Origin: Escherichia coli
GTDB taxonomy: Bacteria; Pseudomonadota; Gammaproteobacteria; Enterobacterales; Enterobacteriaceae
Length of the DNA stretch: 64,000 bases
Assembly (NCBI RefSeq): GCF_041886205.1
Contig: NZ_CP169029.1
Reading direction: 5' to 3' (one strand)
The position numbers and the translations under genes are program-made. Positions 1,862 to 15,355 of the stretch are shown piece by piece (positions within the stretch are counted from its first letter, which is position 1; each line of letters starts with the position of its first letter). The notes beneath the pieces are model-generated. The model worked only from the letters and a program-made list of their open reading frames with translations, was not told where the DNA came from and searched no databases.

Positions 1862-4174
1862 ATGCCTCGCTTGTTAACCAAACGCGGCTGCTGGATAACG
1901 CTGGCAGCTGCGCCATTTCTCCTTTTTCTTGCAGCGTGGGGAGCAGATAAACTCTGGCCTCTACCGCTGCATGAAGTCAATCCCGCACGAGTGGTCGTGG
2001 CGCAGGATGGTACGCCGCTCTGGCGCTTCGCCGATGCTGACGGCATCTGGCGTTATCCGGTAACAATCGAAGATGTTTCTCCACGTTACCTTGAAGCGCT
2101 GATCAATTATGAAGATCGCTGGTTCTGGAAGCATCCGGGGGTGAATCCATTCTCGGTGGCGCGCGCAGCATGGCAAGATCTCACTTCGGGACGGGTTATT
2201 TCCGGTGGCAGCACGCTCACTATGCAGGTTGCTCGTCTGCTTGATCCTCACCCCAAAACATTTGGCGGCAAAATTCGCCAGCTCTGGCGCGCGTTACAAC
2301 TGGAATGGCATCTGTCTAAGCGTGAAATTCTGACCTTGTATCTTAACCGCGCTCCGTTTGGCGGTACGTTGCAGGGGATCGGTGCGGCAAGTTGGGCTTA
2401 TCTCGGAAAGTCGCCTGCGAATTTAAGCTATTCCGAGGCGGCAATGCTGGCGGTTTTGCCGCAAGCGCCCAGCCGTCTTCGCCCGGATCGTTGGCCGGAG
2501 CGTGCCGAAGCCGCGCGTAATAAAGTGCTCGAACGGATGGCCGTGCAAGGTGTGTGGTCCCGTGAGCAGGTAAAAGAGTCAAGGGAAGAACCCATCTGGC
2601 TGGCACCCCGACAAATGCCGCAACTGGCACCGCTGTTTTCGCGCATGATGCTCGGTAAAAGCAAAAGCGACAAAATCGTTACTACGCTGGATGCCGGTCT
2701 TCAACGACGTCTGGAAGAACTGGCGCAAAACTGGAAAGGGCGGTTGCCACCGCGCAGCTCACTGGCGATGATCGTGGTTGATCATACAGATATGCGTGTT
2801 CGCGGCTGGGTGGGATCGGTTGATCACAACGATGATTCACGCTTTGGTCATGTTGATATGGTCAATGCGATCCGATCGCCAGGATCGGTGCTCAAACCGT
2901 TTGTTTATGGTCTGGCGCTGGATGAAGGCTTGATCCACCCGGCATCACTGCTGCAAGACGTCCCCCGGCGCACCGGTGATTATCGACCAGGTAACTTTGA
3001 TAGCGGTTTTCATGGCCCGATCAGCATGAGCGAGGCGCTGGTGCGCTCGCTGAACTTACCTGCTGTGCAGGTGCTGGAAGCTTATGGACCGAAACGGTTT
3101 GCGGCAAAGTTACGCAATGTTGGATTGCCGTTATATTTGCCCAACGGCGCTGCGCCGAATCTTTCACTCATTCTCGGCGGCGCTGGTGCAAAACTGGAAG
3201 ATATGGCGGCAGCGTATACCGCGTTTGCTCGCCACGGCAAGGCAGGCAAATTGCGCTTACAGCCTGACGATCCGCTGCTTGAACGGCCTTTAATGTCGTC
3301 GGGGGCGGCGTGGATCATTCGCCGGATTATGGCTGATGAAGCGCAACCCTTGCCGGATAGTGCCTTGCCACGCGTCGCCCCACTGGCATGGAAAACGGGC
3401 ACCAGCTATGGCTATCGTGACGCCTGGGCGATTGGGGTTAACGCTCGCTATGTCATTGGGATCTGGACTGGCAGACCTGACGGCACGCCCGTTGTTGGTC
3501 AGTTTGGCTTTGCCAGTGCCGTACCATTGTTGAATCAGGTCAATAATATCTTACTGTCGCGCAGTGCGAATCTGCCGGAAGACCCGCGCCCGAACTCAGT
3601 CACTCGTGGCGTTATCTGCTGGCCGGGCGGACAGTCTTTGCCGGAAGGTGACGGTAACTGTCGCCGCCGCCTGGCAACCTGGCTGCTGGACGGGAGTCAG
3701 CCGCCAACTCTATTACTGCCGGAGCAGGAAGGCATTAATGGCATTCGTTTCCCCATCTGGCTGGATGAAAATGGCAAACGTGTTGCCGCTGATTGCCCGC
3801 AAGCGCGACAAGAAATGATAAATGTCTGGCCGCTACCGCTGGAACCCTGGTTGCCCGCATCAGAACGTCGCGCTGTGCGCTTACCACCGGCCTCGACAAT
3901 TTGCCCGCCATACGGTCACGATGCCCAGCTCCCTCTGCAGCTGACAGGCGTTCGCGATGGCGCGATTATTAAACGTTTACCGGGCGCAGCGGAAGCGACT
4001 TTGCCGTTGCAATCAAGTGGAGGGGCAGGTGAACGCTGGTGGTTTCTGAATGGCGAACCGTTAACTGAACGCGGGCGCAACGTGACCCTGCATTTGACGG
4101 ATAAAGGTGATTATCAATTGCTGGTGATGGATGACGTAGGGCAAATCGCGTCAGTACATTTTTCATTTCAGTGA
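1862..4174 (+). CDS. pbpC: penicillin-binding protein 1C (peptidoglycan glycosyltransferase)
   Basis: 770-aa ORF with an N-terminal membrane anchor and a glycosyltransferase-type N-domain; ATG abuts the yfhM stop (TAAATG). Confidence 0.9.
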   Translation: MPRLLTKRGCWITLAAAPFLLFLAAWGADKLWPLPLHEVNPARVVVAQDGTPLWRFADADGIWRYPVTIEDVSPRYLEALINYEDRWFWKHPGVNPFSVARAAWQDLTSGRVISGGSTLTMQVARLLDPHPKTFGGKIRQLWRALQLEWHLSKREILTLYLNRAPFGGTLQGIGAASWAYLGKSPANLSYSEAAMLAVLPQAPSRLRPDRWPERAEAARNKVLERMAVQGVWSREQVKESREEPIWLAPRQMPQLAPLFSRMMLGKSKSDKIVTTLDAGLQRRLEELAQNWKGRLPPRSSLAMIVVDHTDMRVRGWVGSVDHNDDSRFGHVDMVNAIRSPGSVLKPFVYGLALDEGLIHPASLLQDVPRRTGDYRPGNFDSGFHGPISMSEALVRSLNLPAVQVLEAYGPKRFAAKLRNVGLPLYLPNGAAPNLSLILGGAGAKLEDMAAAYTAFARHGKAGKLRLQPDDPLLERPLMSSGAAWIIRRIMADEAQPLPDSALPRVAPLAWKTGTSYGYRDAWAIGVNARYVIGIWTGRPDGTPVVGQFGFASAVPLLNQVNNILLSRSANLPEDPRPNSVTRGVICWPGGQSLPEGDGNCRRRLATWLLDGSQPPTLLLPEQEGINGIRFPIWLDENGKRVAADCPQARQEMINVWPLPLEPWLPASERRAVRLPPASTICPPYGHDAQLPLQLTGVRDGAIIKRLPGAAEATLPLQSSGGAGERWWFLNGEPLTERGRNVTLHLTDKGDYQLLVMDDVGQIASVHFSFQ

Positions 4175-4268
4175 AATATACAAAATATTTATTAATCTAA
4201 TTATGGTATTTATATTTGGAATGCATTAATAATTTAATAATCTCACGTTTTTTTAAACGACTAATTAT

Positions 4269-4282
4269 TTGATTGTTATCAG
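4269..4282. promoter_or_regulatory. FNR-like box (TTGATtgttATCAg, 9/10 match to TTGAT-N4-ATCAA) upstream of the DmsA-like gene
   Basis: Read directly in the AT-rich 160-bp leader; centre lies about 62 bp upstream of the ATG at 4338. Confidence 0.4.
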
Positions 4283-4337
4283 CATTGTTCTCGAATAAAT
4301 ACGTGAATATTTATTTTTTCATTTTCGGGAACGCAAG

Positions 4338-6719
4338 ATGGATACGCCAGACGAAAAGGAACGCATTACATTTCCGCAAGTATCACGACGTAGTTTTTTA
4401 CAAGCGACTTCCGCGCTTATCACTTTGCCTTTTATTTCTTCTGCCGCAAAGGCGCAATCTTCAGATGCGTCGCCAGAAGTTACAGCTCCGGTGGCTGATA
4501 AAGTCGTGCCCACCTGTAGCACATTTGACTGTGGTGGTAAGTGCGATATTCGGGCGCATATGCGCGACGGTGTGGTGACGCAAATTACCACGCTTCCCGA
4601 TAACGAACTGGATCCACAAATGCCGATTATGCGCGCCTGTGTTCGTGGTCGCGGCTATCGTAAATTTGTTTATCATCCAGACCGCCTGAAATATCCGATG
4701 AAACGGGTCGGTAAACGGGGCGAGGGTAAATTTGAGCGTATTTCATGGGATGAGGCGACGACCTTAATTGCCGATAACCTGAAAAGGATCACGCAACAAT
4801 ATGGCCCGGCTTCACGTTATGTCCATGTCGGGACGGCTGTTTCTGGTGGAACATTTTCTGGTGATGCGATGGCACGTCGGCTGTTAAATTTAACCGGTGG
4901 TTATCTTGAATATTATCACTCAGTTAGTCTGGGTAATACTGCGGCCGCAACGCCTTACACGTATGGCGTGGCGGCCAGCGGTAACTCGATGGACACTCTT
5001 CTGGATACCAAACTGGTGATCCTCTGGGGGCATAACCCAACGGAAACCATCTTCGGTCACACCAATTACTTTTTTCAAAAAATGAAGCAAAACGGTACGC
5101 GTTTTATCGTGGTGGATCCGCGTTATTCCGACACTGTATCTTCGCTTGCCGATCAGTGGATCCCGCTGCTGCCGACCACGGACAATGCGTTGATGGACGC
5201 GATGATGTACGTGATTATCAGCGAAAATCTCCACGATAAGCAGTTTATCGAAACTTACACGCTCGGTTTTGATGAAGATTCCATGCCTGAGGGCGTACCG
5301 GCGAACGAGTCGCTGTATGCCTACCTGTTCGGCGCGAAAGATGGCGTGCGCAAAACGCCGGAATGGGCAGAAAAAATTACCCACGTTCCGGCACAAACTA
5401 TTCGTCAACTGGCACGCGATTACGCCACTACAAAACCTGCGGCGCTGATTCAGGGTTGGGGGCCACAGCGACATATTTGCGGCGAACGTACCGCCCGAGG
5501 TTCAACTTTACTGGCCTCGATTACCGGTAACGTCGGCATCAAAGGTGGCTGGGCGGCAGGTTATGGCGGTAGTTCTAATCGTAAATTCTGCGTTGGACCA
5601 GATATGCCAGAAAATCCGGTACAAGCGAAAATCTCGATTATGAACTGGATGCAGGCGGCGGATGATGCTTCTAAAGTTACGCCGCAAGATGGGCTTAAAG
5701 GTGTCGATAAACTCGACAGTAATATCCGCCTGCTGTTCTCACTGGCAGGTAATTATCTGGCGAACCAGAACCCGGACGTCCACCAGGCCGCGAAGCTCCT
5801 TGAAGACGAATCTAAAATAGAATTCATCGTACTCAGCGATCTGTTCATGACTCCGAGCGCGAAATATGCCGATGTGTTGCTGCCGGAAACCAGCTTTATG
5901 GAACGCTGGAATATCGGCGAAACATGGGGAACAGCGAGCTATCTTATTCTGTCAGAAAAACTGATTGAGCCGGAGTTTGAACGTCGCACGGATTATGACT
6001 GGTTGCGTGACGTGGCGAAAAAACTGGGTGTCGAAGCCGAGTTCAGTCAGGGACGTGATGAGAAGCAATGGATTGAGCATATCTGGGAGCAAACTCGTCT
6101 GGCGATGCCGGATGAAAATTTGCCGGACTTCGCGACCCTGCAAAAAACACGTCGCCATCTTTTCAAAAGTGCGCCGCACATCGCTTTCGAAGCAAATATT
6201 CGCGATCCGCAGAATAATCCTTTCCCGACGCCTTCCGGCAAAATTGAGATCTTCTCTAAGCGTCTTTTTGATATGCAAGATCCAGAAATTCCCGCGCTTT
6301 CGCACTATGTCCCTGCCTTTGAAGGGCCAGAAGATAAACTGACGGCGAAATACCCGTTGCAGCTCATCACCTGGAAAGGGAAAAACCGTGCTAATTCCAC
6401 CCAGTATGCTAACCCATGGCTGCAAGAAGTTCAGACGCAAAAACTCTGGCTGAATCCGCAAGATGCAAAACAGCGCGGGATTAGCGAAGGAGATAGCGTA
6501 AAAATTTATAACGATCGTGGTGTGAGCATTATCCCGGTGGAAATAACCCCCCGTATCATCCCTGGCGTAGTTGCTATGCAGGCGGGGGCATGGTGGCAAC
6601 CGGATGCACAAGGTATCGATCGCGGAGGCTGTGCCAATGTACTGAGTTCGACCCGCATTACGGCGCTGGCGAAAGGGAATTCGCATCAAACAATGCTGGT
6701 GGAGGTTGAGAAAGCATGA
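4338..6719 (+). CDS. Tat-exported molybdopterin (bis-MGD) oxidoreductase catalytic subunit, DMSO reductase (DmsA) family
   Basis: 793 aa; twin-arginine signal SRRSFLQATSA followed by an AxA-type cleavage region; N-terminal Cys cluster C-x4-C-x3-C...C; length and architecture match DmsA/YnfE-type enzymes; stop overlaps the next ATG. Confidence 0.85.
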   Translation: MDTPDEKERITFPQVSRRSFLQATSALITLPFISSAAKAQSSDASPEVTAPVADKVVPTCSTFDCGGKCDIRAHMRDGVVTQITTLPDNELDPQMPIMRACVRGRGYRKFVYHPDRLKYPMKRVGKRGEGKFERISWDEATTLIADNLKRITQQYGPASRYVHVGTAVSGGTFSGDAMARRLLNLTGGYLEYYHSVSLGNTAAATPYTYGVAASGNSMDTLLDTKLVILWGHNPTETIFGHTNYFFQKMKQNGTRFIVVDPRYSDTVSSLADQWIPLLPTTDNALMDAMMYVIISENLHDKQFIETYTLGFDEDSMPEGVPANESLYAYLFGAKDGVRKTPEWAEKITHVPAQTIRQLARDYATTKPAALIQGWGPQRHICGERTARGSTLLASITGNVGIKGGWAAGYGGSSNRKFCVGPDMPENPVQAKISIMNWMQAADDASKVTPQDGLKGVDKLDSNIRLLFSLAGNYLANQNPDVHQAAKLLEDESKIEFIVLSDLFMTPSAKYADVLLPETSFMERWNIGETWGTASYLILSEKLIEPEFERRTDYDWLRDVAKKLGVEAEFSQGRDEKQWIEHIWEQTRLAMPDENLPDFATLQKTRRHLFKSAPHIAFEANIRDPQNNPFPTPSGKIEIFSKRLFDMQDPEIPALSHYVPAFEGPEDKLTAKYPLQLITWKGKNRANSTQYANPWLQEVQTQKLWLNPQDAKQRGISEGDSVKIYNDRGVSIIPVEITPRIIPGVVAMQAGAWWQPDAQGIDRGGCANVLSSTRITALAKGNSHQTMLVEVEKA

Positions 6720-7345
6720 GCCAATTTAAAGAATTTGCATCTGTCAGCGACAAACAATTAGGGTTCTTCATTGACTCTTCGCGTTGTTCTGGCTGTAAAG
6801 CGTGTCAGGTGGCCTGTAAAGACAAAAATAACCTTGAGGTTGGGCGACGTTTTCGCCGCGTGTATGAAGTGAACGGCGGTGGCTTCATCGCCACTGGAGA
6901 GGGCGGTGTGAGTCATAATGTCTTTGCTTATACCCTTTCTATTTCCTGTAACCATTGCGCGGATCCGATCTGTATCAAAAATTGCCCGACGATGGCGATG
7001 CATAAGCGTCCCGGAGACGGTATTGTGCGCGTGAATACTGATAAGTGCGTCGGTTGCGGTTACTGCGCCTGGTCCTGTCCTTACGGCGCACCGCAAATGA
7101 ATGAGCAGACCGGGCAGATGTCGAAATGCGATTTCTGTATTGATCTGCAAGCTAAAGGAGAACAACCCATTTGCGTGGCAACGTGCCCGTTGGGGGCGAT
7201 TAAGTTCGGCCCTATTGATGAGTTGCGTGAAAAGTATGGCGATGTCAGTGATGTGAAAGGTTTACCTGATTCGTCGATTACGCAGCCAAATCTGGTGATT
7301 AAACCGCATCAGGGCGCGGAAAAGGAGGCGTCACATCATGCATGA
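6716..7345 (+). CDS. 4Fe-4S electron-transfer subunit, DmsB-like
   Basis: 209 aa with four ferredoxin-type Cys clusters (e.g. CSGCKACQVAC, CNHCADPICIKNCP, CVGCGYCAWSCP, CDFCIDL...CVATCP); translationally coupled to neighbours. Confidence 0.85.
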   Translation: MSQFKEFASVSDKQLGFFIDSSRCSGCKACQVACKDKNNLEVGRRFRRVYEVNGGGFIATGEGGVSHNVFAYTLSISCNHCADPICIKNCPTMAMHKRPGDGIVRVNTDKCVGCGYCAWSCPYGAPQMNEQTGQMSKCDFCIDLQAKGEQPICVATCPLGAIKFGPIDELREKYGDVSDVKGLPDSSITQPNLVIKPHQGAEKEASHHA

Positions 7346-8159
7346 ATTACCGTTAATGGCTTTTACGCTGTTGTTACAGGCATCGGTCGGTATGACCTTG
7401 TGGCTGGCGTTTCTTCATCGTCATATTTTAATCACCTCCAGCGCCCGCCCGGTTATGCGGCCGCCATTACTGTTGGCTTTTTTGGCAGGTGCCGTAGGGT
7501 TACTGATTTCTACCTTACATCTGGGTTATCCACTTAATGCGATGCATGCGCTAAGCCACTTTTCCAGTTCATGGCTGAGTCGGGAAATTATCTTTGGTGC
7601 GCTGTATCTGGCGCTATTGGGTTTATCCACATTACTGGTCATGTTACGCAAAGGCGGCTGGCAACTCCTGCTTATGCTAGCGGCAGTGGTCGGGATTGTT
7701 GATGTTTTCTGCATGGCGCAAGTTTACATCCATACGTCGATTATCACCTGGCAGCATTACAACACGCTGATTATGTTCTTAGGTACAGTGGGAATTCTCG
7801 GTTCAGCGCTGGTAGCAGTGTTTCGTATTAGCGGAATTTTGCCGCAGATTGATGCCCTGCGTAATGGATGCGTGTTGGTGATCGCTTTCCTGGTTCTGTT
7901 GCGTTTGTTGGTTCAGCCGTTGTGGATAGGGGATTTAACGGCAAATGCGATGCAGATAGCCACATTGCCACATGCGCCATTAGCGATGCTGGGACAGTTA
8001 AAACCCATACTGACACTAAGCTGGGGAATTTCCGTCATTGGGATGATGTTCTTTGCTGTCGGTGGTTGTAAAAAGAATATCCCGGCGGCGTTATTCGGTA
8101 GCGTAATGCTAGTGGGGAGTGAAGTTATGCTGCGTTTTGTCTTTTTTAGTATCAGCTAA
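7338..8159 (+). CDS. integral membrane anchor subunit, DmsC-like
   Basis: 273 aa, highly hydrophobic with about 8 predicted transmembrane segments; position after the A and B homologues. Confidence 0.7.
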   Translation: MHELPLMAFTLLLQASVGMTLWLAFLHRHILITSSARPVMRPPLLLAFLAGAVGLLISTLHLGYPLNAMHALSHFSSSWLSREIIFGALYLALLGLSTLLVMLRKGGWQLLLMLAAVVGIVDVFCMAQVYIHTSIITWQHYNTLIMFLGTVGILGSALVAVFRISGILPQIDALRNGCVLVIAFLVLLRLLVQPLWIGDLTANAMQIATLPHAPLAMLGQLKPILTLSWGISVIGMMFFAVGGCKKNIPAALFGSVMLVGSEVMLRFVFFSIS

Positions 8160-9013
8160 TGTTAAGTCATAACATAACGATTGGCGCGGAATGCGCGCGC
8201 CAACGCTTTCGTTTTGCAACATGTCATGCCTGTGTCGAGGCTTGCCCGGCACAGGCGCTAACGCTGACAGAAGAGGGCGTAGCGGTCGACGCGGAACAAT
8301 GTATTGAGTGTGCGGTTTGCCAGTTTATTTGCCCGCAAGAGGCTATTCGTGGCGTTAATTCCCCTTTACGTTATTTTCGCAATCACACCCTGGTCGCACC
8401 TTTCACCACTATTGCGCCGACGCTGGAAGAACTTTTGCTATGGCATAAAGAGCAGGGGATCACAGCGATCGCGATTGATCTGAGTCAGGCGAAGGCATGG
8501 GAGCGCGCATTATTGCTGTTAAACGAACGCTTACGGCAATATGGCGAGGAAGGCTGGTCTGTGGTATCTCCACATACCAGTGAGGTGAATGTTTCCCGGC
8601 GTCGTTTGTTCCATGTGCAGCGTGCGGATGTTCAGATGACACAAATACAGCCAGGATTACGTCGGTTACATTATTTTTGGCCCCAGATTAGTGATGCTCG
8701 CCCGATGATGGATCCTCAAAAGTGTCAGCTTTGCGGTGCATGCTGGCGGGCCTGCGGGCAACAGGTCTTTTCGCTTAACGAAGGCCATTTACAAATCAAT
8801 GATGCCTTGTGTACCGGATGCCAAAATTGTATTGCTGTTTGTTTTCATCAGGCAATGACCGTTGAATTGACGATTCTACCGGCAAAAATTGTGAATCTTC
8901 ATGCTAATCGCAAAGTCTGTAAAACCTGTCAAAAATCCTTTCTTACTTTTCAGCAAAATGCGCAAAATTGTCTTTATTGCCAACGTCATCGCTATGGGAT
9001 GAGAGCATCATAA
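8159..9013 (+). CDS. polyferredoxin-like protein (four 4Fe-4S-type Cys motifs plus C-terminal CxxC-x14-CxxC)
   Basis: 284 aa; motifs CHACVEACP, CIECAVCQFICP, CQLCGACWRAC, CTGCQNCIAVC and CKTCQ...CLYCQ; start overlaps the previous stop (TAATG). Confidence 0.7.
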   Translation: MLSHNITIGAECARQRFRFATCHACVEACPAQALTLTEEGVAVDAEQCIECAVCQFICPQEAIRGVNSPLRYFRNHTLVAPFTTIAPTLEELLLWHKEQGITAIAIDLSQAKAWERALLLLNERLRQYGEEGWSVVSPHTSEVNVSRRRLFHVQRADVQMTQIQPGLRRLHYFWPQISDARPMMDPQKCQLCGACWRACGQQVFSLNEGHLQINDALCTGCQNCIAVCFHQAMTVELTILPAKIVNLHANRKVCKTCQKSFLTFQQNAQNCLYCQRHRYGMRAS

Positions 9014-9153
9014 AAGTCGAGTTGTTGCTAAAACTCATTTTATTTTAAAAAAATGTTACCTTCATCAATAGTCAACGGCCCTGTTGCTCATTATAATCCG
9101 CGCCATCTCGTACGCTGGTACAGACAACAACAGAATAATTTACAGAGGTAAAA

Positions 9154-9585
9154 ATGGCTATTGAACGTACTTTTTCCATCATCAAACCGAACGCGGTAGC
9201 AAAAAACGTCATTGGTAATATCTTTGCGCGCTTTGAAGCTGCGGGGTTCAAAATTGTCGGCACCAAAATGCTGCACCTGACCGTTGAACAGGCACGTGGC
9301 TTTTATGCTGAACACGATGGAAAACCGTTCTTTGATGGTCTGGTTGAATTCATGACCTCTGGCCCGATCGTGGTTTCCGTGCTGGAAGGTGAAAACGCCG
9401 TTCAGCGTCACCGCGATCTGCTGGGCGCGACCAATCCGGCAAACGCACTGGCCGGTACTCTGCGCGCTGATTACGCTGACAGCCTGACCGAAAACGGTAC
9501 CCACGGTTCTGACTCCGTCGAATCTGCCGCTCGCGAAATCGCTTATTTCTTCGGCGAAGGCGAAGTGTGCCCGCGCACCCGTTAA
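9154..9585 (+). CDS. ndk: nucleoside diphosphate kinase
   Basis: 143 aa, [15 protein letters not shown]..., with the NDK active-site His region (NGTHGSDS). Confidence 0.95.
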
Positions 9586-9645
9586 TAATTTCGTAAATGC
9601 CGCGTGCAAACGTGGCATCCGTGCGCCAGAATTTGTACAATGCAG

Positions 9646-9690
9646 CGCCCCCGGACGAGCAGCCGCTCACCGGGGCGTTTCTTTTTTCAA
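9646..9690 (+). terminator. possible rho-independent terminator after ndk
   Basis: GC-rich imperfect hairpin (cgcccccgg ... ccggggcg) followed by tttcttttttc. Confidence 0.4.
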
Positions 9691-9734
9691 CCCTCCAGGG
9701 GCCATAACGTGTAATAACGAGGCCGGAATAGCAT

Positions 9735-10889
9735 ATGTCTGAACAATTAGTCACACCTGAAAACGTCACCACCAAAGATGGAAAAATCAACCTGCTGGAT
9801 CTCAATCGTCAGCAGATGCGGGAGTTTTTTAAAGATTTAGGTGAAAAACCCTTCCGCGCCGATCAGGTGATGAAGTGGATGTATCACTATTGCTGCGACA
9901 ATTTTGATGAGATGACTGACATCAACAAAGTGTTGCGCGGCAAGCTGAAAGAGGTGGCGGAAATCCGCGCACCGGAAGTGGTTGAAGAACAGCGTTCATC
10001 TGACGGCACCATTAAATGGGCGATTGCCGTGGGTGACCAGCGTGTCGAAACGGTGTACATCCCGGAAGACGACCGCGCTACGCTCTGCGTCTCTTCACAG
10101 GTGGGGTGTGCGCTGGAGTGTAAATTCTGTTCCACCGCCCAGCAGGGCTTTAACCGCAACCTGCGGGTATCGGAAATTATTGGCCAGGTGTGGCGTGCGG
10201 CGAAAATCGTCGGCGCAGCAAAAGTCACCGGTCAGCGTCCGATCACTAACGTAGTAATGATGGGCATGGGCGAGCCGCTGCTCAACCTGAACAACGTCGT
10301 TCCGGCGATGGAAATTATGCTTGATGATTTCGGTTTTGGTCTGTCAAAACGTCGCGTTACCCTGTCGACCTCTGGCGTGGTTCCGGCACTGGATAAACTC
10401 GGCGATATGATCGACGTTGCACTGGCAATTTCCCTGCACGCGCCGAACGACGAAATTCGTGACGAAATTGTGCCGATCAACAAAAAGTACAATATCGAAA
10501 CGTTCCTTGCTGCGGTGCGCCGTTATCTGGAGAAATCCAACGCCAATCAGGGCCGAGTCACTATTGAATACGTGATGCTTGACCACGTTAACGATGGCAC
10601 TGAACACGCGCACCAACTGGCGGAGCTGCTGAAAGATACGCCGTGTAAGATCAACCTGATCCCGTGGAACCCGTTCCCGGGTGCGCCGTATGGACGCAGC
10701 TCGAACAGCCGTATCGACCGTTTCTCAAAAGTGCTGATGAGCTACGGTTTCACCACTATTGTGCGTAAAACGCGTGGTGATGATATCGATGCTGCCTGTG
10801 GTCAGTTGGCGGGCGATGTTATCGACCGTACGAAACGTACCCTGCGTAAACGGATGCAGGGTGAAGCCATCGACATTAAAGCGGTCTGA
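9735..10889 (+). CDS. rlmN: 23S rRNA m2A2503 / tRNA m2A37 methyltransferase (radical SAM)
   Basis: 384 aa; radical-SAM Cys motif [10 protein letters not shown]; conserved neighbour of ndk and rodZ. Confidence 0.95.
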
Positions 10890-10893
10890 TAGC

Positions 10894-10937
10894 CATTACG
10901 CCACGGTTACTTTATGTACCGTGGCGTAATGTTTTAT
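10894..10937 (+). terminator. rho-independent terminator after rlmN
   Basis: 14-bp perfect stem (cattacgccacggt / accgtggcgtaatg), 10-nt loop, then TTTTAT. Confidence 0.6.
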
Positions 10938-11173
10938 GAATGAAGTATTAAGTTGCAATTGTCTGGTCAATATTAACGGTGCGTTTTTGCTGACTTTAAG
11001 GCAGTATGTAACGATGCAACAGTAAGTTAGCCTTAGTGAATGTGGGCTTTGTCACGAGCACACAGACGGTCTTATACTGTATGATAACGGTTAACTTAAC
11101 GGATGTTTCGCGGTGTGGGTGAGCATGATGGTTCACCGGCATCTCAATTCTCATTTAAACGTACCTGCAGCGA

Positions 11174-12187
11174 ATGAATACTGAAGCCACGCACGACCAA
11201 AATGAAGCACTTACTACCGGCGCTCGCCTGCGTAATGCTCGCGAACAACTAGGACTTAGTCAGCAGGCCGTTGCCGAGCGACTTTGCCTGAAGGTTTCCA
11301 CGGTACGCGACATTGAAGAAGATAAGGCACCCGCCGATCTTGCTTCAACATTCCTGCGCGGATATATCCGCTCTTATGCGCGTCTGGTACATATTCCAGA
11401 AGAAGAACTGCTGCCAGGGCTGGAAAAGCAGGCTCCATTACGGGCTGCAAAAGTTGCGCCGATGCAGAGTTTTTCCCTCGGTAAACGCCGCAAAAAACGT
11501 GACGGCTGGCTGATGACCTTCACCTGGCTGGTGTTGTTTGTGGTTATCGGCCTGAGCGGTGCCTGGTGGTGGCAAGACCACAAAGCTCAGCAGGAAGAGA
11601 TCACCACGATGGCCGATCAATCTTCGGCGGAACTGAGCAGTAATAGCGAGCAGGGGCAGAGTGTTCCGTTAAATACGTCGACAACTACAGACCCGGCTAC
11701 AACGTCCACGCCGCCAGCGTCTGTGGATACTACCGCAACCAACACGCAAACACCTGCCGTAACTGCGCCAGCACCAGCTGTTGATCCGCAACAGAATGCG
11801 GTTGTTTCGCCTTCGCAGGCAAATGTTGATACCGCCGCGACCCCGGCACCAACGGCAACAACAACGCCAGATGGTGCTGCGCCGTTGCCAACCGATCAGG
11901 CAGGCGTGACTACGCCGGCGGCTGATCCGAATGCGCTGGTGATGAACTTTACTGCCGATTGTTGGCTAGAGGTTACTGATGCTACCGGTAAAAAATTGTT
12001 TAGCGGTATGCAGCGTAAAGACGGTAATTTGAACTTAACCGGCCAGGCACCGTACAAACTGAAAATTGGTGCGCCAGCCGCAGTACAGATCCAGTATCAA
12101 GGGAAACCTGTCGATCTGAGTCGTTTTATCAGAACTAACCAGGTTGCGCGTCTGACCCTCAATGCCGAACAATCACCGGCGCAGTAA
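11174..12187 (+). CDS. rodZ: cytoskeleton protein RodZ (HTH, transmembrane, Pro/Thr-rich linker)
   Basis: 337 aa; N-terminal HTH ([12 protein letters not shown]), one transmembrane segment, low-complexity T/P/A-rich periplasmic linker. Confidence 0.9.
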
Positions 12188-12213
12188 CAGACGGGTAACG
12201 CGGGAGATTTTTC

Positions 12214-13332
12214 ATGCATAACCAGGCTCCAATTCAACGTAGAAAATCAACACGTATTTACGTTGGGAATGTGCCGATTGGCGATGGTGCTCCCATCGCC
12301 GTACAGTCCATGACCAATACGCGTACGACAGACGTCGAAGCAACGGTCAATCAAATCAAGGCGCTGGAACGCGTTGGCGCTGATATCGTCCGTGTCTCCG
12401 TACCGACGATGGACGCGGCAGAAGCGTTCAAACTCATCAAACAGCAGGTTAACGTGCCGCTGGTGGCTGACATCCACTTCGACTATCGCATTGCACTGAA
12501 AGTAGCGGAATACGGCGTCGATTGTCTGCGTATTAACCCTGGCAATATCGGTAATGAAGAGCGTATTCGCATGGTGGTTGACTGTGCGCGCGATAAAAAC
12601 ATTCCGATCCGTATTGGCGTTAACGCCGGATCGCTGGAAAAAGATCTGCAAGAAAAGTATGGCGAACCGACGCCGCAGGCGTTGCTGGAATCCGCCATGC
12701 GTCATGTTGATCATCTCGATCGCCTGAACTTCGATCAGTTCAAAGTCAGCGTGAAAGCGTCTGACGTCTTCCTCGCTGTTGAGTCTTATCGTTTGCTGGC
12801 AAAACAGATCGATCAGCCGTTGCATCTGGGGATCACCGAAGCCGGTGGCGCGCGCAGCGGGGCAGTAAAATCCGCCATTGGTTTAGGTCTGCTGCTGTCT
12901 GAAGGCATCGGCGACACGCTGCGCGTATCACTGGCGGCCGATCCGGTCGAAGAGATCAAAGTCGGTTTCGATATTTTGAAATCGCTTCGTATCCGTTCGC
13001 GAGGTATCAACTTCATCGCCTGTCCGACCTGTTCGCGTCAGGAGTTTGATGTTATCGGTACGGTTAACGCGCTGGAGCAACGCCTGGAAGATATCATCAC
13101 TCCGATGGACGTTTCGATTATCGGCTGCGTGGTGAATGGCCCAGGTGAGGCGCTGGTTTCTACACTCGGCGTCACCGGCGGCAACAAGAAAAGCGGCCTC
13201 TATGAAGATGGCGTGCGCAAAGACCGTCTGGACAACAACGATATGATCGACCAGCTGGAAGCACGCATTCGTGCGAAAGCCAGTCAGCTGGACGAAGCGC
13301 GTCGAATTGACGTTCAGCAGGTTGAAAAATAA
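12214..13332 (+). CDS. ispG: 4-hydroxy-3-methylbut-2-en-1-yl diphosphate synthase
   Basis: 372 aa; C-terminal cluster Cys (CPTCSRQ ... GCVVNGPGE). Confidence 0.95.
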
Positions 13333-13442
13333 TAACGTGATGGGAAGCGCCTCGCTTCCCGTGTATGATTGAACCCGCATGGCTCCCGAAACATTGAGGG
13401 AAGCGTTGAGGGTTCATTTTTATATTCAGAAAGAGAATAAAC

Positions 13443-14717
13443 GTGGCAAAAAACATTCAAGCCATTCGCGGCATGAACGATTACCTGCCTGGCGAAACGG
13501 CCATCTGGCAGCGCATTGAAGGCACACTGAAAAACGTGCTCGGCAGCTACGGTTACAGTGAAATCCGCTTGCCGATTGTAGAGCAGACCCCGCTATTCAA
13601 ACGTGCGATTGGTGAAGTCACCGACGTGGTTGAAAAAGAGATGTACACCTTTGAGGATCGCAATGGCGACAGCCTGACTCTGCGCCCTGAAGGGACGGCG
13701 GGCTGTGTACGCGCCGGCATCGAGCATGGTCTTCTGTACAATCAGGAACAGCGTCTGTGGTATATCGGGCCGATGTTCCGTCACGAGCGTCCGCAGAAAG
13801 GGCGTTATCGTCAGTTCCATCAGTTGGGCTGCGAAGTTTTCGGTCTGCAAGGTCCGGATATCGACGCTGAACTGATTATGCTCACTGTCCGCTGGTGGCG
13901 CGCGCTGGGTATTTCCGAGCACGTAACTCTTGAGCTGAACTCTATCGGTTCGCTGGAAGCACGCGCCAATTACCGCGATGCGCTGGTGGCATTCCTTGAG
14001 CAGCATAAAGAAAAGCTGGACGAAGACTGCAAACGCCGCATGTACACTAACCCGCTGCGCGTGCTGGATTCAAAAAATCCGGAAGTGCAGGCGCTTCTCA
14101 ACGATGCTCCGGCATTAGGCGATTATCTGGACGAGGAATCTCGTGAGCATTTTGCCGGTCTGTGCAAACTGCTGGAGAGCGCGGGGATCGCTTACACCGT
14201 CAACCAGCGTCTGGTGCGTGGTCTGGATTACTATAACCGTACCGTTTTCGAGTGGGTGACTAACAGCCTCGGTTCCCAGGGCACCGTGTGTGCAGGCGGT
14301 CGTTATGACGGTCTGGTGGAACAACTGGGCGGTCGTGCAACACCGGCTGTCGGTTTTGCGATGGGCCTCGAACGTCTTGTATTGTTAGTACAGGCCGTTA
14401 ATCCGGAATTTAAAGCCGATCCTGTTGTCGATATATACCTGGTGGCTTCAGGTGCTGATACACAATCTGCGGCTATGGCATTAGCTGAGCGTCTGCGTGA
14501 TGAATTACCGGGCGTGAAATTGATGACCAACCACGGCGGCGGCAACTTTAAGAAACAGTTTGCCCGTGCTGATAAATGGGGTGCCCGCGTTGCTGTGGTG
14601 CTGGGTGAGTCTGAAGTGGCTAACGGCACAGCAGTAGTGAAGGATTTGCGCTCTGGTGAGCAAACGGCAGTTGCGCAGGATAGCGTAGCCGCGCATTTGC
14701 GCACGTTACTGGGTTAA
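13443..14717 (+). CDS. hisS: histidine--tRNA ligase
   Basis: 424 aa, [18 protein letters not shown]...; class II aaRS motifs; apparent GTG start. Confidence 0.95.
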
Positions 14718-14734
14718 GGAAGGAGAAGGACAGC

Positions 14735-15355
14735 GTGGAAATTTACGAGAACGAAAACGACCAGGTAGAAGCGGTTAAACGCTTTTTTGCTGAAAATGGC
14801 AAAGCACTGGCTGTTGGGGTGATTTTGGGCGTTGGCGCACTGATTGGCTGGCGCTACTGGAACAGCCATCAGGTTGATTCTGCACGCTCCGCTTCTCTTG
14901 CCTATCAAAATGCGGTTACCGCAGTGAGCGAAGGCAAACCGGATAGCATCCCGGCGGCGGAAAAATTTGCTGCTGAAAATAAAAATACTTATGGTGCGCT
15001 GGCTTCTTTGGAACTTGCGCAGCAATTTGTTGACAAAAATGAACTAGAGAAAGCTGCCGCCCAGTTACAACAGGGGCTGGCAGACACGAGCGATGAAAAT
15101 CTCAAAGCCGTGATAAATCTGCGTCTTGCTCGCGTTCAGGTACAGCTCAAGCAGGCTGATGCCGCGCTGAAAACCCTTGATACCATCAAAGGTGAAGGGT
15201 GGGCTGCCATTGTTGCCGACCTGCGTGGTGAAGCATTGCTGAGCAAAGGTGATAAGCAAGGTGCGCGTAGTGCATGGGAAGCAGGCGTGAAAAGCGATGT
15301 TACTCCGGCACTGAGCGAAATGATGCAGATGAAAATTAATAATTTGTCCATCTGA
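14735..15355 (+). CDS. yfgM: TPR-like membrane-anchored protein YfgM
   Basis: 206 aa, N-terminal transmembrane helix, conserved position between hisS and bamB. Confidence 0.85.
   Translation: MEIYENENDQVEAVKRFFAENGKALAVGVILGVGALIGWRYWNSHQVDSARSASLAYQNAVTAVSEGKPDSIPAAEKFAAENKNTYGALASLELAQQFVDKNELEKAAAQLQQGLADTSDENLKAVINLRLARVQVQLKQADAALKTLDTIKGEGWAAIVADLRGEALLSKGDKQGARSAWEAGVKSDVTPALSEMMQMKINNLSI

Follow-up and report, generated by a model that had tools for sequence, protein, structure and literature searches.

The DNA analysed here, a window of 64,000 nucleotides (64 kb), belongs to the Escherichia coli chromosome, and the region in question is 100% identical to that of strain 6EVA. In it, the genes yfhM and pbpC are followed by a four-gene Dms-like operon and then by ndk, rlmN, rodZ, ispG and hisS. 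The fourth gene of the operon (8159-9013, + strand) encodes a 284-amino-acid (aa) NapF-like iron-sulfur (Fe-S) protein, called X throughout, which is predicted to be cytoplasmic and probably assists the maturation of the enzyme encoded alongside it. The three genes that precede it encode a DmsA-like catalytic subunit (4338-6719, + strand; 1130 bits on TIGR02166), a DmsB-like four-cluster iron-sulfur subunit of 209 aa (6716-7345, + strand; 268 bits on TIGR02951, and PF13247) and a DmsC-like membrane anchor of 273 aa (7338-8159, + strand; PF04976, E = 1.7e-23). The DmsA-like protein passes the subfamily model and scores below the exception cut-offs for DmsA, YnfE and YnfF, far below all three; it appears to form a third clade, apart from DmsA and YnfE/F. 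As read in the sequence, it has a proper N-terminal twin-arginine translocation (Tat) signal, and its first cysteine group has the spacing C-x4-C-x3-C (CSTFDCGGKC).

The ATG of X overlaps the stop codon of dmsC (TAATG), and X is predicted to be translationally coupled to dmsC. Just past the coupled start, within codons 8-15 of X, lies a GC-rich inverted repeat (TTGGCGCGgaatgcgCGCGCCAA, 8181-8203), which a terminator scan flagged on both strands; the predicted mRNA hairpin could affect the coupling. At the other end of the operon, an FNR-type box (TTGATtgttATCAg, 4269-4282, + strand) matches the consensus TTGAT-N4-ATCAA at nine of ten positions and begins 69 nt ahead of the start codon of the dmsA-like gene. 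Only three sites in the whole window have at least nine of the ten consensus bases (the other two start at 1710 and 36649), and of the 14 related loci that were checked, 13 have a box with eight to ten matches at a comparable distance (-67 to -82). The presence of the box suggests that the operon is expressed anaerobically.

A point that had escaped the sequence-only reading, an earlier description of this DNA made from its letters alone, is that the operon lies on a segment that is accessory in E. coli and is shared with Salmonella, where it corresponds to STM2530-2527. The segment of about 4.86 kb (4167-9021) is located between pbpC and ndk and is present in some and absent from other E. coli genomes: in operon-free genomes the homology ends at 4166 and picks up again at 9022, and 379 of the 5426 complete genomes have the full segment, strains 6EVA and LHM10-1 being examples of carriers. 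At the same pbpC-ndk site, a homologous operon is also found in other Escherichia lineages, in Pseudocitrobacter, Enterobacter, Lelliottia and Huaxiibacter, and in Salmonella arizonae and diarizonae. Because the same site is occupied across genera, the operon is probably ancestral to the group and has been lost from most E. coli.

In agreement with the sequence-only reading, X is a real fourth gene of this operon. It is annotated in RefSeq (WP_000948593, '4Fe-4S dicluster domain-containing protein'), it is conserved, and it is under purifying selection, with a ratio of nonsynonymous to synonymous substitution rates (dN/dS) of 0.11-0.13 against two other Escherichia lineages, similar to that of dmsC. 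It was also correctly noted before that the canonical E. coli operons, dmsABC and ynfEFGH-dmsD, have no counterpart of X.

X contains two ferredoxin domains. The N-terminal two-cluster domain (aa 3-65; 8165-8353, + strand) is matched by Pfam Fer4_7 and Fer4, resembles the C-terminal half of NapF and contains a long-spaced motif, C12-x9-C22-x2-C25-x3-C29-P, followed by the motif C-x2-C-x2-C-x3-C-P (C48/51/54/58). The second two-cluster domain (aa 181-237; 8699-8869, + strand), matched by Fer4_21 and Fer4_10, has two canonical CxxCxxCxxxC motifs (C189/192/195/199 and C218/221/224/228). Profile hidden Markov models of the Pfam Fer4 type match aa ~20-64 and 183-232 above their cut-offs, and the two ferredoxin-like pairs of cysteine motifs described earlier can now be specified as four four-cysteine motifs in two domains, the first motif being non-canonical. 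Each of 65 divergent homologues, down to ~25% identity, has the full set of 16 ferredoxin cysteines. The protein ends with a Cys4 ribbon (aa 254-284; 8918-9010, + strand), in which the pair of CxxC elements that had been seen before is indeed present, with a spacer of 13 and not 14 residues (C254-x2-C257-x13-C271-x2-C274), and which is followed by the conserved tail QRHxxGMR; 64 of the 65 homologues have all four of its cysteines.

The cysteine-free stretch between the two ferredoxin domains also exists, but it spans 130 aa (C58 to C189) instead of roughly 100, and it is more than the linker it was taken for. An AlphaFold2 (AF2) model of X, with a predicted local distance difference test score (pLDDT) of 76, places a confidently folded small α/β domain between the two ferredoxin domains (aa 66-140; 8354-8578, + strand), which had been overlooked; its conserved residues are R71, L78, E91-L92-L93, N122 and L125, and it is cysteine-free in the subfamily of the window. 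The same model predicts a terminal β-ribbon with short β-strands. A sister group of 330-360 aa proteins (P0103-P0165; for example, 7001-8077 of the related locus L009) shares the architecture of X and has four additional conserved cysteines in the middle domain (~C94, C109 and C136-x2-C139), which may constitute a fifth metal site that was lost in the subfamily of the window.

From the conserved motifs and the ferredoxin-fold models we infer that the two ferredoxin domains of X hold about four [4Fe-4S] clusters and that the ribbon would bind a further metal, probably zinc. No Pfam or NCBIfam model spans the whole of X; Pfam has nothing above cut-off for the middle domain and the ribbon, the matches of the ribbon to zinc-ribbon and HypA models being sub-threshold (HypA 13.5 bits; zf-ChsH2 21.6 bits in a relative, cut-off 23.2). 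No fold match was obtained for the α/β domain, and a fold search with the whole model as well as a sequence search of solved structures returned ferredoxin modules only, generic ones in the fold search and no full-length relative of X in the sequence search. The N-terminal segment of X scores 26.9 bits against the DMSO_dmsB model TIGR02951 (cut-off 214), via generic Fe-S motifs, and by TIGR02951 and PF13247 X is not a member of the Fer4_11/DmsB-type four-cluster subunits. It has no match to the TorD/DmsD/NarJ models PF02613 and NF008632.

A further feature was missing from the earlier description, in spite of being nearly invariant. Within the flexible linker that follows the α/β domain, X carries an internal twin-arginine-like (RR) motif, SRRRLF (aa 146-151; 8594-8611, + strand), which matches the Tat consensus S/T-R-R-x-F-L, yet is followed by hydrophilic residues. 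Of 65 homologues, 63 share R148 and 62 have either R or K at position 147, and the motif as a whole is among the best-conserved non-cysteine features of the family; it was found in 55 of 60 and 37 of 38 family representatives versus 7 of 39 other polyferredoxins from the same search. In the AF2 model, the linker (aa 144-154) has low confidence and the motif itself a pLDDT below 50, and low confidence together with conservation is as would be expected for a short docking peptide. A role of X as a Tat substrate was considered and rejected: the RR motif starts at residue 146, is followed by hydrophilic sequence, and no h-region is present. On inspection of the sequence, X has neither an N-terminal signal peptide nor a hydrophobic stretch, and because of the missing signal peptide it most likely stays in the cytoplasm.

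The closest specific likeness of X is to NapF. The E. coli NapF used as query was checked (248 bits on the NapF equivalog model TIGR00402, which has a curated cut-off of 102.2 bits; 99% identity to the representative of the NapF cluster), and the X family was compared with 26 NapF sequences by profile-profile alignment with hhalign. Residues 2-69 of X aligned to NapF 92-162 (probability 98.7%, E = 1.7e-16) and residues 141-262 to NapF 1-118 (probability 97.7%, E = 2.4e-12). The long-spaced motif C12-x9-C22-x2-C25-x3-C29 fell on NapF C102-x7-C110-x2-C113-x3-C117, and SRRRLF on the N-terminal SRRGIL of NapF with a posterior of 0.8-0.9, an N-terminal [STP]RRx[ILF][LF] being present in 26 of 26 NapFs. 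Because the N-terminal domain of X matches the C-terminal half of NapF, while its RR motif and second ferredoxin domain match the N-terminal half, X looks like a NapF in which the halves have changed places, with an α/β domain added between them and a ribbon at the end. The two proteins share four cysteine motifs, one of them long-spaced (C-x7/9-C-x2-C-x3-C) and preceded by 'TIG', a twin-arginine-like motif without an h-region, the lack of an export signal, and the joint encoding with a Tat-exported enzyme that contains molybdenum bis(pyranopterin guanine dinucleotide) and a [4Fe-4S] cluster. They differ in length (~164 aa for NapF, in a range of ~160-185 aa, versus 284 aa), in the position of the RR motif, which is N-terminal in NapF and internal in X, in the opposite order of the halves, in the additional 75-aa α/β domain and C-terminal Cys4 ribbon of X, and in their operons, which are of the nap type for NapF and of the dms type for X.

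An exhaustive profile search yielded 76 representatives with E < 1e-30, and 98 representative clusters have the full architecture of X; named members carry generic annotation only. The family occurs in enteric bacteria, in Bacillaceae and in uncultured environmental bacteria known from metagenomes; it should be noted that the related loci were found through one peptide pattern taken from a narrow alignment, and that the taxonomic coverage is partial. All of the relatives that were examined are located in, or close to, an operon for a DmsA-type molybdoenzyme, and the cognate DmsA-like proteins all have canonical N-terminal Tat signals. In all close-family loci examined (about 16 distinct ones, in at least four unrelated chromosomal neighbourhoods) the order is dmsA-dmsB-dmsC-X, and in five loci (L004, L006, L019, L020 and L023) X is followed by a gene of the DmsD/TorD type, which in L004 encodes a true DmsD (176 bits on NF008632, cut-off 162). 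The idea that X might substitute for DmsD was therefore rejected, as a true DmsD co-occurs with it. Between genera, identities are 33-44% for X, ~40-54% for DmsC and 76-88% for DmsA and DmsB (the window and loci L002-L023), and the S. arizonae and S. diarizonae loci have 39-40% identity to X.

More distant arrangements are found as well. X comes first in the L008 and L022 clusters and is followed in turn by a radical S-adenosylmethionine (SAM) gene of 440 aa, a TorD-like gene and the genes for a DmsA-type enzyme, its iron-sulfur subunit and DmsC; this arrangement groups X with the maturation genes. This cluster, at 5750-12728 of L008 (a metagenome contig) and 8001-15047 of L022 (Candidatus Symbiopectobacterium), encodes a divergent DmsA-type enzyme of 861 aa and a radical-SAM protein that belongs to no close named family, and it suggests a radical-SAM-dependent maturation step for its DmsA-type enzyme. 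In L009, genes for a DmsA-type enzyme, an iron-sulfur subunit, a TorD-like protein and a cytochrome c precede X. In L007, from Bacillaceae (Mesobacillus, Bacillus), X is 5 kb from an FeS-NrfD-molybdoenzyme set, and a radical-SAM/SPASM gene is found near it; within 7001-14918 of this locus, X stands alone; genes for a sensor kinase and for a sigma-54 activator lie downstream of it, and after these come the FeS, NrfD and 1031-aa molybdoenzyme genes, in an order that we take to be like that of srdBCA. Across these neighbourhoods, X is thus consistently tied to Tat-dependent DmsA-type molybdoenzymes and their chaperones.

Taken together, X is probably a cytoplasmic accessory Fe-S protein of the NapF kind that serves as a maturation factor for the exported DmsA-like enzyme, a reading to which we assign a probability of about 0.6, largely by analogy. 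Of the three functions put forward in the sequence-only reading, this is the one that is favoured, and neither an electron-transfer module nor a redox sensor is. It is favoured because X has no signal peptide while DmsA is exported by the Tat system, because X is similar to NapF, including the RR motif, and because of its chaperone-gene neighbourhood. X would act on the DmsA-like and DmsB-like precursor before Tat export, as the analogy with NapF and the gene neighbourhood suggest, and would help to insert or repair Fe-S clusters (FS0 of DmsA and perhaps those of DmsB) or keep the precursor reduced. The fast evolution of X fits an accessory protein, as is often the case. A more speculative elaboration concerns the flexible internal SRRxLF motif, which might be a signal-peptide-like docking peptide for a chaperone of the DmsD/TorD type or for TatBC; docking would bring X to the chaperone-bound precursor, and X might reside on the cytoplasmic face of DmsC, as the NapF of Wolinella succinogenes does on NapH. 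That SRRxLF mimics a Tat signal and docks X on DmsD/TorD (or TatBC), with X possibly tethered to DmsC, as a dedicated assembly station for DmsA-type enzymes, is a doubtful proposal.

An additional electron-transfer subunit, either a hitchhiker co-exported with DmsA or a protein that feeds in electrons from a cytoplasmic donor, would also be in accordance with the predicted translational coupling to dmsC, with the precedent of DmsB, which is co-exported without a signal of its own, and with four predicted [4Fe-4S] clusters that resemble the modules of HycF, FwdF and MvhB. It is nevertheless unlikely, since the closest specific likeness is to the cytoplasmic NapF, DmsA and DmsB evolve much more slowly than X, the L008 and L022 loci place X with chaperone and radical-SAM genes, away from the genes for the three subunits, and the DmsABC path from quinol via DmsB to DmsA is already complete. 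Furthermore, DmsC is not known to carry a cofactor for the passage of electrons through the membrane, and Cys4 zinc ribbons are generally unusual in the periplasm. The position of X directly upstream of the 440-aa radical-SAM gene in L008 and L022, and near the radical-SAM/SPASM gene in L007, would fit a general low-potential ferredoxin that reduces maturation enzymes, such as the adjacent radical-SAM protein, and does not act on DmsA directly. Yet in most loci, the window among them, the operon lacks a radical-SAM gene, and the conserved RR motif and the α/β domain would be left unexplained, so there is little to recommend this explanation.

Labile Fe-S clusters can sense oxygen or redox state, and a Cys4 ribbon could bind nucleic acid, so that a sensor or a regulator of the operon might be envisaged; however, Pfam and NCBIfam scans detected no DNA-binding or signalling domain in X, the FNR-type box would already account for anaerobic control, and X is the last gene of a structural operon, with a predicted translational coupling and a link to chaperone genes, all of which renders such a role highly improbable. 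The least credible explanation is that the open reading frame is spurious or a decaying remnant: its generic annotation, and nothing else, speaks for this, and it is ruled out for practical purposes by the dN/dS value, by 20 predicted metal-binding cysteines that are conserved at ~25% identity, by synteny in more than 16 loci and by the RefSeq annotation.

Several observations count against the assignment of X as a NapF-like maturation factor and have to be set beside the evidence in its favour. TIGR00402 was not among the best 25 families for X or for either of its halves in hmmscan searches, in which the listed scores extended down to ~20-31 bits; X is thus not a NapF equivalog, being far below 102 bits, and much of the hhalign signal between X and NapF is generic ferredoxin similarity. 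There is also dispute about the mechanism of NapF itself, which some organisms can do without (PMC10609526). The operon in the window has no dmsD of its own, and a Salmonella study found that the STM2530 catalytic subunit gave no DMSO (dimethyl sulfoxide)-dependent growth. The docking proposal is speculative and draws on motif conservation and analogy only. Lastly, the idea that X resides on DmsC draws some support from pairwise distances: those of X co-vary with those of DmsC once DmsA and DmsB are accounted for (partial r 0.50-0.86, permutation p = 2e-4), and show no such relation to DmsA or DmsB (partial r ~0). This is a hint only, as it comes from 13 taxa and may reflect the behaviour of two fast-evolving genes.

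Tat-exported molybdoenzymes need to acquire all of their cofactors before export, and the delivery of Fe-S clusters and its coordination with signal-peptide proofreading are poorly understood. To our knowledge, NapF is the only dedicated iron-sulfur helper that has been proposed for such enzymes, and the X family would extend the NapF idea to those of the DmsA type. The RR peptide offers an experimental handle, since it is nearly invariant, lies in a flexible linker and, in relatives of the window, is encoded together with DmsD. In-vitro cluster transfer, for its part, has a precedent in the NapF of R. sphaeroides. The fourth gene (X in E. coli, STM2527 in Salmonella) may have to be co-expressed when the substrate of the enzyme is sought. 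If the docking proposal were true, X would represent a widespread new class of redox-enzyme maturation proteins, a permuted and expanded NapF superfamily with ~98 representative clusters, and the RR motif of NapF itself would gain a testable function.

With regard to known systems, NapF was reported as a cytoplasmic protein that binds NapA and is required for the reconstitution of the NapA [4Fe-4S] cluster (reviewed in PMC10609526). An Fe-S helper in dms operons is not a new idea, because a role as chaperone or maturation factor was proposed for DmsE and a 'fer4' gene was included in a survey of redox enzyme maturation proteins, where it stands unexplained in the legend of the operon maps of the NarJ subfamily. 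In the dms operon of Haemophilus influenzae, DmsE, a 'NapF homologue', was assigned as a putative chaperone by Kappler's group (Dhouib et al. 2021, PMC8340005). Compared by description only, DmsE and X are both accessory iron-sulfur proteins whose genes close a dmsABC operon and stand next to dmsD, the order being dmsABC-dmsD-dmsE in H. influenzae versus dmsABC-X here and dmsABC-X-dmsD in relatives of X. The size of the 6-kb H. influenzae dms region would be compatible with a dmsE gene of ~0.85 kb. No member of the Pasteurellaceae is among the named matches to the X family, and literature searches for the DmsE locus tags gave no result.

In Salmonella Typhimurium, STM2527 is the positional counterpart of X, as the fourth gene of STM2530-2527 between pbpC and ndk, and STM2530 is that of the DmsA-like gene. 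The Salmonella study complemented with STM2530 alone, which resulted in no activity, and named STM2527 only as the 'fourth gene'.

The N-terminus of NarG is a remnant twin-arginine peptide on a non-exported protein and is bound by NarJ, a chaperone of the TorD family. Like this remnant, the motif of X is of the RR type and would have no export function on a cytoplasmic protein; in X, it is internal and is found on an accessory protein rather than on the catalytic subunit. The polyferredoxin modules of HycF, FwdF and MvhB are electron wires in large complexes and have no RR motif, α/β domain or ribbon, and the likeness of X to them is generic. New in comparison with these systems are a distinct, widespread and unnamed family with the apparent architecture of a permuted NapF, which can be set beside DmsE by description only, its conserved internal twin-arginine-like motif, orphan α/β domain and ribbon, and the link of this family to the accessory operon of E. 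coli and to Salmonella STM2527.

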